A stretch of DNA of 20,000 nucleotides from Piedraia hortae CBS 480.64 (lineage: Eukaryota), in assembly GCA_010093745.1 (NCBI GenBank), contig MU005970.1, positions 120,794 through 140,793 on the forward strand, in the 5' to 3' direction. The first letter of the stretch is position 1, and each line of letters opens with the position of its first letter. Both the position numbers and the translations under genes were made by a program. Positions 12,548 through 19,550 of the stretch are shown here, piece by piece. The notes beneath the pieces were generated by a model that searched no databases, was not told where the DNA came from, and worked only from the letters and a program-made list of their open reading frames with translations.

Positions 12548-13653
12548 ATGTCCCTCCAACCCGTATACATCTTCCGCGGCCACACCTTCGCCATCCACGC
12601 CATCCACTTCCTCCCAAGTAACCTCCACGTTCTCACCGGCGACGCGACCGGCACAGTCATAATCTGGAACCTCACCACCAAGCGCGCCTCAGCGGTCTGG
12701 CAAGCGCACACCAACTCCATCCTCGGAATCGGGCACTGGGACGGCCACAAAATCATCACGTACGTGGCCCGTCGCGAAGCATCCCTACCTAACAAACCCC
12801 TAGTCATGGTCGAGATGGGAGACTCAACATCTGGCTCCTCGACGAAGTGGCCCTATCCCCGAAAGAACTCATTCCCCTACCCCTAGACACCCACCTAACC
12901 CAGTCCCAACCCACACAAACCCCCTCACCCCAACTAACCCACTCCATCCCATGCCACACCCTAAACTTCTGCTCCTTCGCATCAGTCATCCTCCCGGGCG
13001 AAACCCTCCTCCTCGCCCTCCCCGGCCTAATCGACAACGAAATCGTCCTCACTACCCTCCCCTCCTCAGCCCGCCATAGCAAAGCCCTCTCCCCAGGAAA
13101 GAGGGGAATGCCAATGTCCCTCTCCCTCTCCCTCTCCCTCTCCCTCTTCACCACAGAAACCCTTCTCCTCTTAGCAGGCTACGAAGACGGGAGTACAGTC
13201 CTCTTCACCTCCCCCCTAACCTCCCCCAACTGGAGGGTGCTGAGTACGCATGCTTCGCATACCCAGCCGGTTCTGTCGGTAGTGTTGGGAAGGGAGGCGG
13301 GGTTCTCGTCTGCGGCGGATGCGGTGATCGCGAGGTATGCGCTGCCGAAGGAGGGGGCATTACCCCTGGATGGCTCCCCGGAAGGGAAGAGTAGAATCGT
13401 GAATACAGGACACGCGGGACAGCAGGGTCTTGTGATTAGGGACGATGGGAGGATCCTTGCGACGGCGGGGTGGGATGGGAAATTGAGGGTTTATTCTGCG
13501 CGGACTTTGAAGGAACTTGGGGTGGGCATGTGGCATAGGGAGGGCTGCTTCGCGGTGGGGTTTGCGGGGGTGAGAGAGGAAGAGGGGCAGGGGAGGCATT
13601 GGGTTGCGTTGGGGTGTAAAGATGGGAAGGTTTCGCTTTGGGAGGTTTATTGA
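12548..13653 (+). CDS. ASA1: ASTRA-associated protein 1 (WD40), 353 aa. Exons 12548-12759 and 12804-13653
   Basis: PVYIFRGH..IH, LTGDATG..IWNLTTKR..AVWQAH, intron 12760-12803 (GTACGT..CTAAC..TAG, 44 nt), then THGRDG, LNFCSF, GMPMSL, AGYEDG, HTQPVLS, TGHAGQQGLVIRDDGRILATAGWDGKLRVYS and KDGKVSLWEVY. Confidence 0.93.
13117..13146 (+). repeat. (TCCCTC)5 coding microsatellite encoding SLSLSLSLSL in ASA1
   Basis: Five perfect hexamer units directly after the GMPM codons. Confidence 0.9.
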
Positions 13654-13915
13654 TGGGGATGACAATGCGAATATGGTGCGTTTCTCGGTGAGAAGCTGGA
13701 TCCGCCAAACAGCTCTATTGCCCTCAAAGATGGTCTATAGAGACTTCGCTCCCTGACATAAATTGTAGGGCAATGGCACGGTTGGCTCGTTGTCAATATG
13801 CCGGTCTACCAATGGTGGAAGAGATAACAACGTTTACCGATGGAATTAACGTAAAATTCATCATTGTATCCAATTACATCAGTCTGTGTTCCATTCATCT
13901 ATCGTTACATCCCAT

Positions 13916-14500
13916 TCACTCAATCTCAATCCTCTTATTAGCCTTCTCCGCCTTGGGCACTACGATCGACAAAATCCCATTTTTCAAGCTCGCCTTGACA
14001 TGATCCTGGTCGACCAGGCTCGGGAAACTAAACGTCCTCGAAAATTGTCCAACCGAACGTTCCGCAAGCCAAACTTTTGGCTGATCCTCCTTTGGCTGCT
14101 GCTTTGCGACCTCTGTAGAAGTTTCCTTCCCCTCATCCTCAACAGTAGGCTGCTTTTGGTCTGCGGAATCCGTATCATAAGACCTCTCACACCGCCCCGT
14201 GATATTAATCGTCTGCGGTTCGGTGAATTCGATCTGAACATCCTTTTGCTCCATGCCGGGGAGTTCACCGATCAGCTTGTAGGAATCCTTTGCTTCGTGG
14301 ATGTCGAATTTAGGTTGGATGGATGCCAGTCCCTTGGTTGCGGGATTGAAACGTCCGCTGGGTGAGGTGGCTAGGTGGTTGGCATAGTCGTCTAGGAAGC
14401 GGAACATGGGGACGAAGTCATTTTGGAAAAAGGAGACTGTTCGTCTTTGTGGCATTGAGCAAAGAGCTCGAGTTGGGAGAGTTGCTCGGATTGAAGGCAT
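13916..14500 (-). CDS. Small heat-shock protein (HSP20/alpha-crystallin, Hsp30-like), 194 aa, with a 21-aa N-terminal extension resembling a mitochondrial presequence
   Basis: [79 protein letters not shown] and a C-terminal I-E-I motif. Confidence 0.95.
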   Translation of the reverse strand: MPSIRATLPTRALCSMPQRRTVSFFQNDFVPMFRFLDDYANHLATSPSGRFNPATKGLASIQPKFDIHEAKDSYKLIGELPGMEQKDVQIEFTEPQTINITGRCERSYDTDSADQKQPTVEDEGKETSTEVAKQQPKEDQPKVWLAERSVGQFSRTFSFPSLVDQDHVKASLKNGILSIVVPKAEKANKRIEIE

Positions 14501-14535
14501 GTTTGATGATGGATTTGGGAGGGATGGTGAGAGGG

Positions 14536-14709
14536 TTTATATCCATGGAGAATGTATGCAGGCGAATCTACTAGAATATTCTCGCCACTTTTCTGGGACA
14601 GTTGTATTCATCGAAAATGCCATAGGATGTGCTCGCCACTTGGCTGTATATTCTCGGCCCTTCTGGAGGATGTCCTGCACGCCACCTTCCATCGTTTTCT
14701 GGAAGATTC
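14536..14709 (-). promoter_or_regulatory. Proximal promoter of the minus-strand sHSP: TATA box and heat-shock elements
   Basis: TATAAA (minus) at 14536-14541. GAAtcTACtaGAAtaTTC at 14564-14581. TTC at 14651 and 14661. Perfect three-unit HSE TTCtgGAAgaTTC at 14697-14709 with an in-register TTC at 14687. Confidence 0.8.
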
Positions 14710-15011
14710 GATGAGATCCCATGGATGTTTGGAGGCAGCAAGGTAATTCTTAGCTCGAATGGAGCCATGGCAGTCGGACCGATGCTATTCATCATCACTG
14801 ACGTTGAATGTCGACATCTGCAGCGCAAACTCAACCTTGCAGGCCATGCACAACTCTATTTTTTGGACCCACATGTCAGGACGCCTTACTTTGCATACGG
14901 ACTAGCTAGTAATGCATCCTAACTTGACAGACTGGCTTTCTGAACATGGCCTAGACGTTCGATTTGAAGTAGAGGTTTATTGCCGCAGCTGCACCTATGA
15001 TGTGATATGGC

Positions 15012-15073
15012 GTGACGTGGAGTGACGTGGGACAGTGGGGTGGTGGTGGGGTGGTGGGGTGGTGGGGACGTCA
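15012..15073 (+). promoter_or_regulatory. Central regulatory module: tandem CRE/ATF-like sites plus a G-tract array (CreA-like sites, potential G-quadruplex)
   Basis: GTGACGTGG at 15012 and 15022; GACGTCA at 15067; GTGGGG four times, with G4 tracts at 15037, 15048, 15056 and 15064. Confidence 0.6.
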
Positions 15074-15177
15074 ACGGTCACCCTGCCTGTCACCAACAAC
15101 TTGATGACCTCGCAGAATCCTTCTTCTAGTCCAGTCTTGACAATCCTACAGCTTAGGCAAGCAAAGGTAGTCTACTA

Positions 15178-15356
15178 GAAATTGCCCGAAAGCCATAGAA
15201 TGGCCATGGAATCTCGTGGAATTGTGTAGAATTTGCTAGAAATGGGTCGAATATACCACGGTTCGATGCATGCAATGTGGTCTCACGAGATCATTTGAGC
15301 CGGTTCGAGCAAGTTCGACGGAAACAAACCCCTGCTGGTGATTTCATAGCTATAAG
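15178..15356 (+). promoter_or_regulatory. Proximal promoter of the plus-strand sHSP: phased GAA array (step/direct-repeat-type HSE) and TATA-like box
   Basis: GAA at 15178, 15188, 15198, 15209, 15219, 15229, 15239 and 15249; TTC at 15304 and 15314; TATAAG at 15351. Confidence 0.75.
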
Positions 15357-15458
15357 TACTCTTTGATCTGACCTTTCTCTCCTTCTTCCTTCACCTTCAC
15401 TCGTCACATCAACACAACACACACAACCAGTCCACACATACACACATACTCATACACG

Positions 15459-16052
15459 ATGGCTTTCTACCAGAACGACTTTGTCCCCATGTTCCGTTTC
15501 TTGGATGACTATGCCAACCATGTGGCTTCGTCATCGGACAGGCGTGTCGAGCCTGCCAGCCATGTCAAGAGCTTGACCTCGTTTAAGCCGAAGTTCGACA
15601 TTCAGGAAACCAAGGATGCGTACAAGCTCCATGGTGAATTCCCTGGCATCGACCAGAAGGACATCAGCATTGAGTTCACAGACCCTCAGACGATCAACAT
15701 CACTGGCCATTATGATCGCTCCTACGAGGAAGGGGAACGCCCCCAGCAGCAGCAGCAGCAGCAGCAGATTGAACATCATAAGCCTACCGTTGAGGACGAG
15801 AAGGCCGACTCCAAGGAATCTGAGCCCTCCAAGGAGGTTACTCAGCAGCAGCAGAAGGTGCAGAAGCAGCAGAGTGGCGGGAAGCACACCAAGTTTTGGC
15901 TCTCGGAGCGCTCTTCGGGCCACTTTTCTCGCACCTTTAGCTTTCCCGCCCACGTTGACCAGAACAATGTCAAGGCCAGCTTGAAGAATGGAGTCCTTAC
16001 TGTTACTGTGCCCAAGGCGGAGAAGGTTAGCAAGCGGATTCAAATTGAGTGA
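15459..16052 (+). CDS. Small heat-shock protein (HSP20/alpha-crystallin, Hsp30-like), 197 aa, no presequence, poly-Q inserts
   Basis: [72 protein letters not shown] and a C-terminal I-Q-I motif; strongly biased codon use. Confidence 0.96.
15744..15767 (+). repeat. (CAG)8 poly-glutamine repeat; a second (CAG)4 at 15843-15854
   Basis: Read directly from the sequence; lies in the insertion within the alpha-crystallin domain. Confidence 0.92.
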
Positions 16053-16266
16053 GGCAAACAGCACACTGCAGAAAGATGGCATGAGAGATGACGTAATGTA
16101 GCGGGGTATAATGTAATGAGTTCAATCCATGACTGTGTTCCATTTGTCTGTAAGGTAAGAAAGTCGTGTATACGGTGAGTACTTGTATTTTACAACGCGT
16201 CAAGCAACTAGCCTTGCCACAGCATGGGCTGGCCTTTGAACCATCCATCCAGGTAGACGGCATTCA

Positions 16267-18381: not shown

Positions 18382-18551
18382 GGTTGTAGGTAGATAGGAT
18401 TGCTGAGGTTTTGTGTGTGCGCGCCTAGCGGGGTGACATGTGCCCCACAGGAAAGTCAAGATGGAAAAATTGTAGGGGACAGACAGGGATTGCCCCACCA
18501 ATCGGGAGTTTTACTCCAGCAGACATTGTACAAACACTGCATTTCTCTACG

Positions 18552-19550
18552 ATGCAAGTCCTCCGCACCGTGTCTGACGTACGAACCTACCGCCGCGAGC
18601 TCCTTCAAAATGGGAAACAAGTAGGCCTAGTCCCCACCATGGGCGCCCTCCATGCGGGACACGTCTCTCTCGTACGAGCCGCAGCATCAGAAAACGACTG
18701 CGTAATCGTATCAATCTACGTAAACCCGACCCAGTTCGGAGTGAACGAGGATCTGGATAGCTATCCCCGGACGTGGGACGAGGACGTTGCCATTCTTCAA
18801 TCCCTCGACAAAGAGCTCGTCCAGGAGGGGAAGAGGGGAAGGGTCTCTGCTATTTTCGCCCCGACGACAAAGGAAATGTACCCCACATTACCACCAGATT
18901 CGACATTACCCGGTTCGGGGTCGTTTGTGGTGATTACCCCGCTGGCTGATAAACTCGAGGGACGGTCCAGGCCTGTGTTCTTCCGCGGGGTGGCGACTGT
19001 GTGTATGAAATTGTTCAACATCGTTGCCGCGGAAAGGGTTTACTTTGGGCAAAAGGATGTTCAGCAGACGGTTGTGATTCGGCGGATGGTAAAGGATTTG
19101 CATGTCGATGCAGAGGTTCGGGTTGTGCCGACCGAGCGGGAGAGCGATGGATTGGCGCTCAGCAGTCGAAATGTATACCTTGGTGAGAGGAGGAGAAGAA
19201 ATGCGGTGCTGCTGTCAAAAGCATTGTTTGCTGCCGAGGCGGCGTACAAGTCTGGTGAGAGGCATAGGGATAAGGTTCTCGCTGCAGCATGGGGTGTTAT
19301 GAAGGAGTTTGACCGGAAGCAAGATGGTCTCGGACCGGAGGACCGGATTAGATTCCAGGTTGATTATCTCTCGCTCGCGGATCCAGATTCGCTGGATGAG
19401 GTAGACGAGGTTGATGGGCAGAGAGGTGCTGTTCTGAGCGGAGCGGTGAAGATGCTCCCGGTAGAAGCAGTCAAACACGGCGAGAAACTGGGCAGAGGAG
19501 ATGATGCCGTTCAGGTGCGGCTGATTGATAACGTTATTTTATCCGGATGA
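18552..19550 (+). CDS. PAN6: Pantoate--beta-alanine ligase (pantothenate synthetase), 332 aa
   Basis: VGLVPTMGALHAGH (HIGH-like motif), SIYVNPTQF, EDLDSYPRT, LEGRSRPVFFRGVATV, FGQKD, DGLALSSRN and RLIDN. ATG 18552 (MQVLRTV) is preferred over the upstream in-frame ATG 18438. Confidence 0.96.
   Translation: MQVLRTVSDVRTYRRELLQNGKQVGLVPTMGALHAGHVSLVRAAASENDCVIVSIYVNPTQFGVNEDLDSYPRTWDEDVAILQSLDKELVQEGKRGRVSAIFAPTTKEMYPTLPPDSTLPGSGSFVVITPLADKLEGRSRPVFFRGVATVCMKLFNIVAAERVYFGQKDVQQTVVIRRMVKDLHVDAEVRVVPTERESDGLALSSRNVYLGERRRRNAVLLSKALFAAEAAYKSGERHRDKVLAAAWGVMKEFDRKQDGLGPEDRIRFQVDYLSLADPDSLDEVDEVDGQRGAVLSGAVKMLPVEAVKHGEKLGRGDDAVQVRLIDNVILSG

Follow-up and report, generated by a model that had tools for sequence, protein, structure and literature searches.

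A head-to-head pair of HSP30-type genes

The locus contains two small heat shock protein (sHSP) genes that diverge from a 958-bp spacer (positions 14501-15458 of the window, that is, of the whole 20-kb stretch of DNA analyzed; Table 1). Both ORFs match the HSP20 profile PF00011 above its curated cut-off of 20.8 bits (62.7 bits for the minus ORF and 71.3 bits for the plus ORF), and PF00011 accounts for 100% of the nearest Atlas clusters. The two proteins are 56% identical (BLASTP, E 4e-72), and V22 of the minus sHSP pairs with M1 of the plus sHSP in the alignment. The ORFs, the PF00011 matches and the BLASTP comparison thus bear out the description in the initial annotation of two related sHSP genes diverging from a common spacer, and the 17-residue block that it reported is indeed present in both proteins. 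An in-frame stop is located 13 codons 5' of ATG 14500 in the minus gene; in the plus gene, no in-frame ATG occurs upstream before the first stop.

Table 1. Features of the sHSP locus (positions in the window)
Feature	Position	Strand	Remarks
Minus sHSP gene, longest ORF	13916..14500	-	194 aa from ATG 14500; stop 13916-13918; PF00011
N-terminal extension MPSIRATLPTRALCSMPQRRT	14438..14500	-	21 codons; acid-free, 4 Arg, Arg at -2 before V22
Second in-frame ATG, Met16	14453..14455	-	inside the extension; T at -3; starts the 179-aa form
GTC, Val22	14435..14437	-	site of the relatives' conserved internal start Met
TATAAA box, minus gene	14536..14541	-	41 nt 5' of ATG 14500, 86 nt 5' of ATG 14455
Overlapping HSE-like sites, proximal to minus gene	14564..14581	.	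one mismatch each
Perfect HSE GAAtcTTCcaGAA	14697..14709	-	sole zero-mismatch match in the 20-kb window
Three HSE-like sites, proximal to plus gene	15178-15190, 15229-15241, 15304-15316	.	
TATAAG box, plus gene	15351..15356	+	108 nt 5' of ATG 15459
Plus sHSP gene	15459..16052	+	197 aa; PF00011; without extension
Poly(A) addition sites, minus gene	13833..13846	-	loose T-runs before 13833 and 13846
Poly(A) addition sites, plus gene	16129..16132	+	loose A-runs behind 16129 and 16132

The N-terminal block of the HSP30 subfamily, F-x-P-[LM]-F-R-[LF]-L-D-D-[YF], is present, with F29, P31, F33, R34 and D37 invariant in alignment A1, and among named proteins, "heat shock protein 30" of Piedraia hortae is the nearest (62% identity). 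In the tree, for which seven database rows, very short or truncated at the N-terminus, were coded as "unknown", this protein and the two window copies form a 99* clade without a resolved branching order within the trio. The mature parts have diverged to 56-66% identity. DNA similarity between the two copies is restricted to the coding part, and comparison of their promoters and flanks detected no similarity outside it. Given this confinement and the unresolved order of the trio, we interpret the pair as an old inverted duplication. The divergent layout, the conservation of which the initial annotation proposed to check, did not recur: none of 80 metagenome loci of relatives had a head-to-head sHSP partner at E <= 1e-5, and around the 37 genes whose upstream flank measured 1600 nt or more, the search for a second sHSP gave only chance-level matches (E > 2).

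Six of the 10 HSE-like matches in the window, including the only perfect one, fall in the spacer, so that HSF binding elements, another mark of the HSP30 subfamily, occur in the promoters; the window-wide count itself (10 against 6.2 expected) is not above chance. In run X1 (one run, one condition), taken to be RNA and showing poly(A) loose ends, both genes are transcribed and polyadenylated. The pair is best explained as HSF-driven genes of the HSP30 class in an ascomycete of Dothideomycete-like character and represents ordinary HSP30 biology. The co-regulated module of cytosolic and mitochondrial-matrix chaperones that had been proposed for the locus is consistent with these observations as far as the transcription of both genes and the clustering of HSEs are concerned, whereas the matrix retargeting is doubtful (see below). 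The window genes resemble the hsp30 type of Neurospora crassa in the HSP20 domain and the conserved N-terminal block as well as in the HSE-bearing promoter and very high transcript abundance; they differ in that there are two head-to-head copies, one of which has lost the start Met and has 21 upstream codons. In N. crassa, the Hsp30 transcripts show the largest reported heat-shock rise, 187-fold (PMC5117620).

N-terminal extensions across the HSP30 family

In 42 of 118 database homologues, the conserved internal Met is preceded by an in-frame, acid-free, Arg/Thr-rich extension, typically some 25-35 residues long. An extension at the same position was found in 62 of 80 metagenome loci, and at least 30 of 119 Hypocreales-type matches carry one as well. 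The taxa involved are Dothideomycetes, lichen fungi and Hypocreales, with gene models from Aureobasidium, Pseudocercospora fijiensis, Acrodontium, lichen fungi, Fusarium, Trichoderma, Ilyonectria and Ophiocordyceps. Across the relatives, the extensions span 25-39 residues (median 30), and 41 of the 42 database homologues that carry one retain the internal Met (Leu in P0019). Near-identical proteins are annotated in public databases both with and without the extension; start-codon annotation of HSP30 genes is inconsistent across these databases.

An acid-free, Arg/Ser/Thr-rich, amphipathic N-terminus has the textbook features of a mitochondrial presequence, and MPP-type cleavage follows the rule of Arg at -2 or -3. 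Among 47 distinct family extensions, there is no Asp or Glu in 1433 residues, whereas Arg and Lys make up 22%, Ser and Thr 24%, and Leu 10%. Arg occupies position -2 in 30 of the 47. Amphipathicity exceeds the median of the extension's own shuffles in 44 of the 47, with a family median muH(11) of 0.78; the scale and window length chosen for this measure make it a home-made proxy rather than a validated predictor. GAN codons are absent in frame (0 of 1433) but occur 137 and 38 times per 1386 codons in the other two frames, and this frame-specific lack of acidic codons, together with that of stops, argues for translation of the family extension.

The start-codon contexts are equally regular. Across 45 distinct loci (rows L005 and L008, in which the internal Met was mis-parsed, were excluded from these and the following counts), the -3 base of the upstream ATG is T in 38, C in 6, G in 1 and A in none, that is, a pyrimidine in 44 of 45. 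At the internal ATG, the -3 base is A in 39, G in 5 and C in 1, a purine in 44 of 45. Between the two starts, the 45 relatives have no ATG in any frame, against 25.5 +/- 4.9 expected; none of 500 mononucleotide shuffles and 3 of 500 codon-order shuffles were as low. A weak upstream AUG, a strong downstream AUG and an AUG-free interval suggest that the relatives' gene is a two-start gene. The TATA box of 21 relatives lies 59-102 nt 5' of the upstream ATG (median 64). The possibility that the metagenome contigs of about 1 kb are transcripts was rejected: many contain a TATA box 5' of the ATG, and a poly(A) end is absent from all 77 loci that were parsed.

Presence of the extension at the same position in so many homologues implies that it is probably ancestral and was lost by the plus copy. 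This reverses the direction assumed in the initial annotation, which described the minus copy as apparently retargeted to mitochondria. In the comparison with orthologues proposed there, the composition of the extension recurs in relatives, and the window copy is shorter and less basic.

The extension and transcript start of the minus copy

The extension of the minus copy contains 4 Arg, 5 Ser/Thr and no Asp or Glu, the first acidic residue of the protein being at position 28, and R20 stands at -2 of V22, so that both the presequence-like composition and the R-2 motif noted earlier hold. Like the extensions of its Pezizomycotina relatives, it is a basic, hydroxylated, acid-free stretch before the conserved N-terminus, with the R-x ending usual among them; unlike this copy, the relatives keep the internal Met, a weak upstream ATG and no intervening ATG, and have clearly amphipathic extensions of 25-39 residues. 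Amphipathicity of the window extension is at chance by the same home-made proxy (maximum muH(11) 0.53, shuffle mean 0.52, p 0.46), and it has 21 residues against a family median of 30 and 4 basic residues against 7. An HMM built from 87 family extensions gives it 6.6 bits, which is rank 1 of the 388 Met-started 22-mers in the window, but this score is reached by 106 of 2000 shuffles of the extension itself (5.3%). Order-level homology is therefore weak, and kinship with the family is indicated mainly by position and composition. The 21 codons look like a shortened, eroded derivative of the family-wide extension.

The start sites depart from the family pattern as well. The -3 base is A at ATG 14500, which makes its context strong, and T at ATG 14455, a weak context, so that the layout of a weak upstream AUG followed by a strong downstream AUG with none between them is not found in the minus gene. 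Signs of erosion are the one in-frame ATG inside the extension, which has a counterpart in 0 of 45 relatives, and the TATA box at -41 compared to -59 to -102.

Several observations bear on which ATG the abundant RNA includes. Summed contig depth in X1 ranges from 9e4 to 4e5 in the ORF bins up to 14482 and falls to 314.6 in bin 14483-14569, the latter value coming from one clean 450-nt contig spanning 14453-14902, which bridges ATG 14500 and continues upstream for 400 nt, past several ATGs and a stop. In the plus gene, the corresponding low-depth contig extends to about 15446, and the contig boundaries of both genes lie approximately 59-66 nt 3' of their TATA boxes. Abundant minus-gene RNA may thus stop near 14453-14483, although contigs cannot by themselves show a transcript start. 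Depth in X1 is one figure per contig, so that a thin 5' tail past 14500 may hide in the mean of the 450-nt contig. Two database records from independent collections, P0001 (179 aa) and an Atlas record from residue 16, begin at Met16, and neither collection has a longer version of the protein; these are possibly gene predictions rather than experimental results. Transcription starting downstream of ATG 14500, which would speak against the proposed presequence, is hence hinted at by the contigs, by the spacing of the TATA box and by the Met16 records: the abundant mRNA may start between ATG 14500 and ATG 14455, in which case Met16 is probably its first AUG.

Origin and role of the extension

The genes, their domains, the family-wide extension with its coding signature and the contexts of the start codons are direct observations; for the minus gene, we infer the transcript start, the choice of start codon and the localization of the product as follows. 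With a probability of about one half, the extension is an eroded family presequence, the main product is a 179-aa cytosolic sHSP, and the 194-aa form is at most minor. In relatives, an acid-free, amphipathic Arg/Lys/Thr-rich stretch is encoded between the weak upstream AUG and the strong, conserved internal AUG and therefore probably represents a mitochondrial presequence to which only some of the transcripts or ribosomes give rise. This design would have been degraded in the minus gene, with the TATA box brought to only 41 nt before ATG 14500, Met16 gained, the old internal Met gone and the amphipathic pattern lost. The abundant heat-shock mRNA would begin between the two ATGs, and the main product of such an mRNA would be the cytosolic sHSP starting with MPQRRTVSFF.

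Counter to erosion is the strong A at -3 of ATG 14500, seen in 0 of 45 relatives, which together with the weak ATG 14455 gives the picture expected of a switch to an obligatory upstream start. Moreover, the extension is still open, acid-free and R-x-ended despite the divergence of the mature parts, which argues for some constraint. It is possible, though the odds are against it, that the pair arose by duplication of an ancestral two-start HSP30 gene and has been subfunctionalized, a sharper version of the idea in the initial annotation, with the plus copy producing the short cytosolic form only and the minus copy being a long-only, dedicated mitochondrial paralogue translated from ATG 14500, its 21-residue presequence directing matrix import and MPP cutting after R-x to yield a mature sHSP from near V22. 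The replacement of the internal Met by Val solely in the minus copy suits a long-only copy equally well as erosion, and the lack of an upstream in-frame ATG in the plus copy, the Arg at -2 in an acid-free extension with 4 Arg, the top HMM rank among the window 22-mers and the low-depth contig across ATG 14500 all fit this division. The boundary seen in the contigs, the spacing of the TATA box and the Met16 records, on the other hand, suggest an mRNA lacking ATG 14500, and the extension is short, weakly basic, of chance-level amphipathicity and weak in order-level family similarity, equalled by 5.3% of its shuffles. A broader scheme, which we regard as doubtful, is that HSP30 of filamentous ascomycetes was ancestrally two-start, the weak cap-proximal AUG giving the mitochondrial and the strong internal AUG the cytosolic form, and that the window resolved this by duplication, the minus copy becoming long-only (Met lost, A at -3) and the plus copy short-only.

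Improbable in our estimate is continued production of both forms by the minus gene, in which heterogeneous starts near ATG 14500 would yield a minor 194-aa mitochondrial and a major 179-aa cytosolic product, with Met16 substituting for the lost internal Met in the two-start logic of the family. The family leader, coding in frame 0 and AUG-free in all frames, implies dual use, and the strong context of ATG 14500, the weak one of ATG 14455 and the low-depth cover upstream of 14500 are compatible with it; the presequence amphipathicity is weak, however, and the low-depth contig may stem from either strand and from another source and, given its 400-nt upstream run through ATGs and a stop, need not be productive mRNA. 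Very improbable is that the family extension is not mitochondrial at all, being instead an open 5' leader or a nucleolar or PTS2-type signal, and that the window codons carry no targeting information. The mitochondrial role is predicted from sequence features, and the conserved TTC-ATG-CA context found 59-102 nt downstream of the TATA box might serve as a transcription initiator and not as a start codon. Yet the in-frame absence of acidic codons and stops speaks for translation, and the composition is presequence-like, with order-dependent amphipathicity in 44 of 47 extensions; a Dothideomycete sHSP of matching size has also been predicted to be mitochondrial (PMC9363843). PTS2-like spacing suits some members only, as judged by eye, and the peroxisomal reading was dropped on the same inspection because the members do not consistently share the spacing motif.

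Plant mitochondrial sHSPs and Drosophila Hsp22 carry a cleavable targeting extension and exist alongside cytosolic paralogues. These are dedicated genes with experimentally established import, whereas import in the window is a prediction and the start codon is doubtful. In the yeast genes HTS1 and VAS1, two in-frame AUGs flank the presequence, with the long form mitochondrial and the short form cytosolic. This architecture resembles the layout in the relatives, for which the mechanism (leaky scanning or alternative TSS) is deduced from sequence statistics; the minus gene of the window has lost the downstream conserved AUG. Among fungal sHSPs, N. crassa Hsp30 was reportedly found by Plesofsky-Vig and Brambl in 1990 to associate with mitochondria, and we know of no presequence in this protein. 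Beauveria sHSPs have been predicted to be cytoplasmic. BdHsp20_4 of Botryosphaeria dothidea (252 aa), a Dothideomycete sHSP whose length places it with the extension-bearing forms, was predicted to be mitochondrial by ProtComp, and in the available part of that article the assignment is a software prediction alone, without extension or start-codon analysis (PMC9363843). Beyond this one prediction, the texts retrieved in a full-text literature search, as far as they were accessible, did not treat an HSP30 extension or mitochondrial isoform in fungi.

For the window, the result is mainly corrective: the proposed retargeting is open to doubt, and if it did occur, evolution ran the opposite way. 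The family pattern carries greater weight than the window pair, and the recurring acid-free, amphipathic extension with its weak-AUG/strong-AUG layout makes a mitochondrial isoform of fungal HSP30 directly testable. If true, the two-start ancestry would provide a genetic basis for the tie of Neurospora Hsp30 to mitochondria.

The divergent gene pair and its promoters

The minus and plus copies, two small heat-shock protein (sHSP) genes of the fungal HSP30 class, both matched Pfam HSP20 far above threshold in the domain search, and their products share 56% identity, V22 of the minus copy lying opposite M1 of the plus copy. The divergent arrangement of two related genes is thus borne out, and the composition initially reported for the 21 extra minus-copy residues (four Arg, five Ser or Thr, no acidic residue) was reproduced exactly in a sequence recount. 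These observations of the initial annotation are confirmed, and their interpretation as a co-regulated cytosolic and mitochondrial chaperone pair is partly supported. Thirteen codons upstream of ATG 14500 the frame is interrupted by a stop, which limits the minus-copy protein to at most 194 aa. In the plus copy, the hydrophilic insert of the alpha-crystallin domain contains eight consecutive Gln (CAG repeat, 15744-15767), a run absent from the minus copy. The three neighboring genes are ordinary and show no link to the sHSP pair.

Features of the sHSP locus and example extensions in relatives
Feature	Position	Strand	Basis or remark
WD40-repeat fragment, probably terminal exon	13108-13653		neighbor
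Minus sHSP ORF, 194 aa	13916-14500	-	ORF listing; Pfam HSP20
Met16, in-frame ATG within minus-copy extension	14455-14453	-	
Spacer between both sHSP ORFs, 958 bp	14501-15458		
TATAAA box, minus gene	14541-14536	-	read from sequence
HSE-like sites near minus gene	14564-14581		motif scan
Perfect HSE near minus gene, only perfect one in window	14697-14709		motif scan
HSE-like sites near plus gene	15178-15316		motif scan
TATAAG box, plus gene	15351-15356	+	read from sequence
Plus sHSP ORF, 197 aa	15459-16052	+	ORF listing; Pfam HSP20
DEAD-box SPB4-type rRNA helicase, 704 aa	16267-18381		neighbor
Pantoate-beta-alanine ligase	18438-19550		neighbor
Example extension, metagenome locus L004	3932-4015		
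Example extension, metagenome locus L012	180-254		
Example extension, metagenome locus L036	3932-4012		

Six of the 10 HSE-like matches in the 20-kb window fall within the spacer, in two groups, and DNA similarity between the copies is confined to the region from the aligned N-terminus through the stop codon. Given the separate TATA boxes, the two HSE groups and the restriction of similarity to the coding part, the type of regulator is common to both genes but the promoter is not, and the duplication is old. The middle of the spacer contains two tandem TGACGTGG motifs (15013-15020 and 15023-15030), which we take to be bZIP/ATF-like, followed by a G-rich (GGGGTGGT)n tract (about 15037-15067) that contig placement skipped as a repeat.

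The N-terminal extension across the HSP30 family

Searching with the 194-aa protein gave 121 homologues; among the 120 listed were the two window proteins, and the 118 others were aligned with these two. At least 20 residues precede the conserved Met in 42 of the 118 (among them proteins of Aureobasidium, Pseudocercospora fijiensis, Acrodontium and several lichen fungi), 69 have none, and 7 are truncated or too short. When a tree was computed with the extension columns removed, presence and absence of the extension were finely interleaved (27 changes), and near-identical proteins differ in extension state (e.g., P0057/P0080 and P0112/P0120), so that much of the class with no extension likely reflects annotation choice or 5' truncation. 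Among 80 metagenome loci, 62 have an in-frame ATG that precedes the conserved Met by at least 15 codons in an uninterrupted frame; 11 lack an upstream in-frame ATG, in 4 the contig ends too early, and 3 were unparsed. The upstream-ATG layout also appeared in at least 30 of 119 hits of a search seeded with a Hypocreales-type sequence, including gene models of Fusarium, Trichoderma, Ilyonectria and Ophiocordyceps. The extension can therefore no longer be regarded as a local innovation of the minus copy.

The conserved upstream ATG usually reads TTC-ATG-CA (Met-Gln) and is followed by an acid-free extension of 25-39 codons and a strong-context internal ATG, a layout that spans Dothideomycetes, lichen fungi and Hypocreales (L001-L080; P0011, P0034, P0048, P0148, P0187). 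Public gene models of near-identical HSP30 proteins differ in the choice of start. Fungal-type HSP30 entries filed under Klebsiella pneumoniae, the planthopper Nilaparvata lugens and avocado, Persea americana (P0166, P0227, P0089), are probably contaminant sequences.

The 47 distinct extensions, which are mutually related so that counts over them are not independent, comprise 1433 residues with 0 Asp/Glu, 22% Arg+Lys, 24% Ser+Thr and 10% Leu. In frame, none of the 1433 codons is an acidic GAN codon, vs 137 and 38 of 1386 in the other two frames, which contain 18 and 17 stops. The helical hydrophobic moment exceeds the median of own shuffles in 44 of the 47 (p <= 0.05 in 22); 30 of the 47 place Arg at -2 relative to the internal Met, 37 have Gln as the second residue, and 39 have Arg as the fifth. 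Judged by these features, the family extension looks coding and presequence-like, and a non-mitochondrial meaning is very improbable.

Start contexts were compared in 45 distinct loci, leaving out the mis-parsed L005 and L008. The -3 base of the upstream ATG is T in 38, C in 6, G in 1 and A in 0, and that of the internal ATG is A in 39, G in 5 and C in 1. No ATG in any frame occurs between the two starts in these 45 loci, compared with 25.5 +/- 4.9 expected from mononucleotide shuffles (0/500 as low) and 3.7 +/- 1.5 from codon-order shuffles (3/500 as low). Of the 24 loci with 150 nt of upstream sequence, 21 have a TATA box that precedes the upstream ATG by 59-102 nt (median 64). The rules of leaky scanning and the R-2 rule of MPP are established, and HTS1 and VAS1 of yeast are two-start genes. 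The family layout looks like that of a two-start gene: coding and leader signatures in one stretch would be expected where the first AUG is weak and close to the cap and either scanning is leaky or transcript starts are mixed.

History of the pair

Both window proteins and a Piedraia hortae HSP30 form one clade (99*), with the branching inside it unsettled by the quick tree method. The copies are 66% and 65% identical to that protein vs 56% to each other, which makes the duplication about as old as this split. Because the extension is widespread outside the clade, it is most simply explained as ancestral, lost in the plus copy and retained in reduced form in the minus copy, rather than as a gain that retargeted the minus copy. 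The plus ATG is preceded by 29 in-frame codons (15372-15458), a count equal to the usual family extension length, that are free of both acidic codons and ATG; these could be a remnant of the lost extension or a plain CT/CA-rich leader. Conservation of the head-to-head layout was not borne out: a divergent sHSP partner was found in 0 of 37 relative loci with enough upstream flank, so the layout is lineage-specific as far as these distant relatives, at 40-51% identity, can tell.

Start site of the minus gene

The minus-copy extension is shorter than the family median (21 vs 30 residues) and less basic (4 vs 7), with a hydrophobic moment of 0.53 vs a shuffle mean of 0.52 (p 0.46). Scored with an HMM built from 87 family extensions, it reaches 6.6 bits and ranks first among the 388 window 22-mers that begin with Met, with no other equal; 106 of 2000 own shuffles reach this score, so that its kinship with the family rests on position, composition and end motifs, not on order. 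It also contains the internal ATG of Met16, a feature of 0 of 45 relatives.

RNA evidence comes from contigs of one public sequencing run, of a kind only guessed and from one condition, placed on the window. The poly(A) ends of both sHSP genes appear in it as loose T-runs before 13833 and 13846 for the minus gene and loose A-runs behind 16129 and 16132 for the plus gene. Depth is a mean per contig and carries no strand information; summed, it is 1e5 to 1e6 across both ORFs vs about 300-600 over spacer and flanks. The promoter-proximal spacer halves are each covered by a long, clean contig of low depth, with a zero-depth bin (14918-15004) between them: one of 450 nt on 14453-14902 (depth 314.6), and one of 383 nt (depth 505.4) placed on 15071-15430 within about 15064-15446, which reaches about 15446 if its 16 letters unplaced at one end run past 15430. 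Both contigs may stem from transcripts initiated upstream or from divergent promoter transcription.

The start-site evidence for the minus gene divides between ATG 14500 and Met16. We give about even odds (0.5) to a start at Met16 and a mainly cytosolic product. Transcripts beginning downstream of ATG 14500, which the initial annotation had set against mitochondrial targeting, were looked for in the contigs, which cannot show a transcript start: depth falls from 9e4-4e5 in the ORF bins up to 14482 to exactly 314.6 in bin 14483-14569, where the single 450-nt contig bridges ATG 14500. The edges of the abundant RNA, as read from contigs, would lie about 59-66 nt past the TATA box in both genes, placing that of the minus gene, whose TATA box is only 41 nt before ATG 14500, between this ATG and ATG 14455. 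Two collections store the protein from Met16 onward, and its entry in the homologue search is 179 aa long.

Against this stand the strong context of ATG 14500, with an A at -3 that occurs in 0 of 45 relatives, and the weak context at ATG 14455; the replacement of the conserved internal Met by Val (GTC); and the persistence of a frame that is open, free of acidic residues and ends in R-x. A dedicated mitochondrial copy is less probable, and a minus gene making two products is less probable still.

Mitochondrial sHSPs exist in plants and Drosophila, and a 1990 paper reportedly concerns N. crassa hsp30 and mitochondria. A full-text literature search found no paper that describes fungal HSP30 as having a presequence or a pair of starts; literature outside its scope, such as a survey of filamentous-fungal sHSPs from 2016, could already cover these. 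One sHSP of Botryosphaeria dothidea (252 aa) is predicted to be mitochondrial (PMC9363843), the three Beauveria sHSPs are predicted to be cytoplasmic (PMC9224193), and Hsp30 transcripts rise most of all upon heat shock of N. crassa (PMC5117620). The family-wide layout, apparently two-start and presequence-like, is an interesting lead that would be easy to test.
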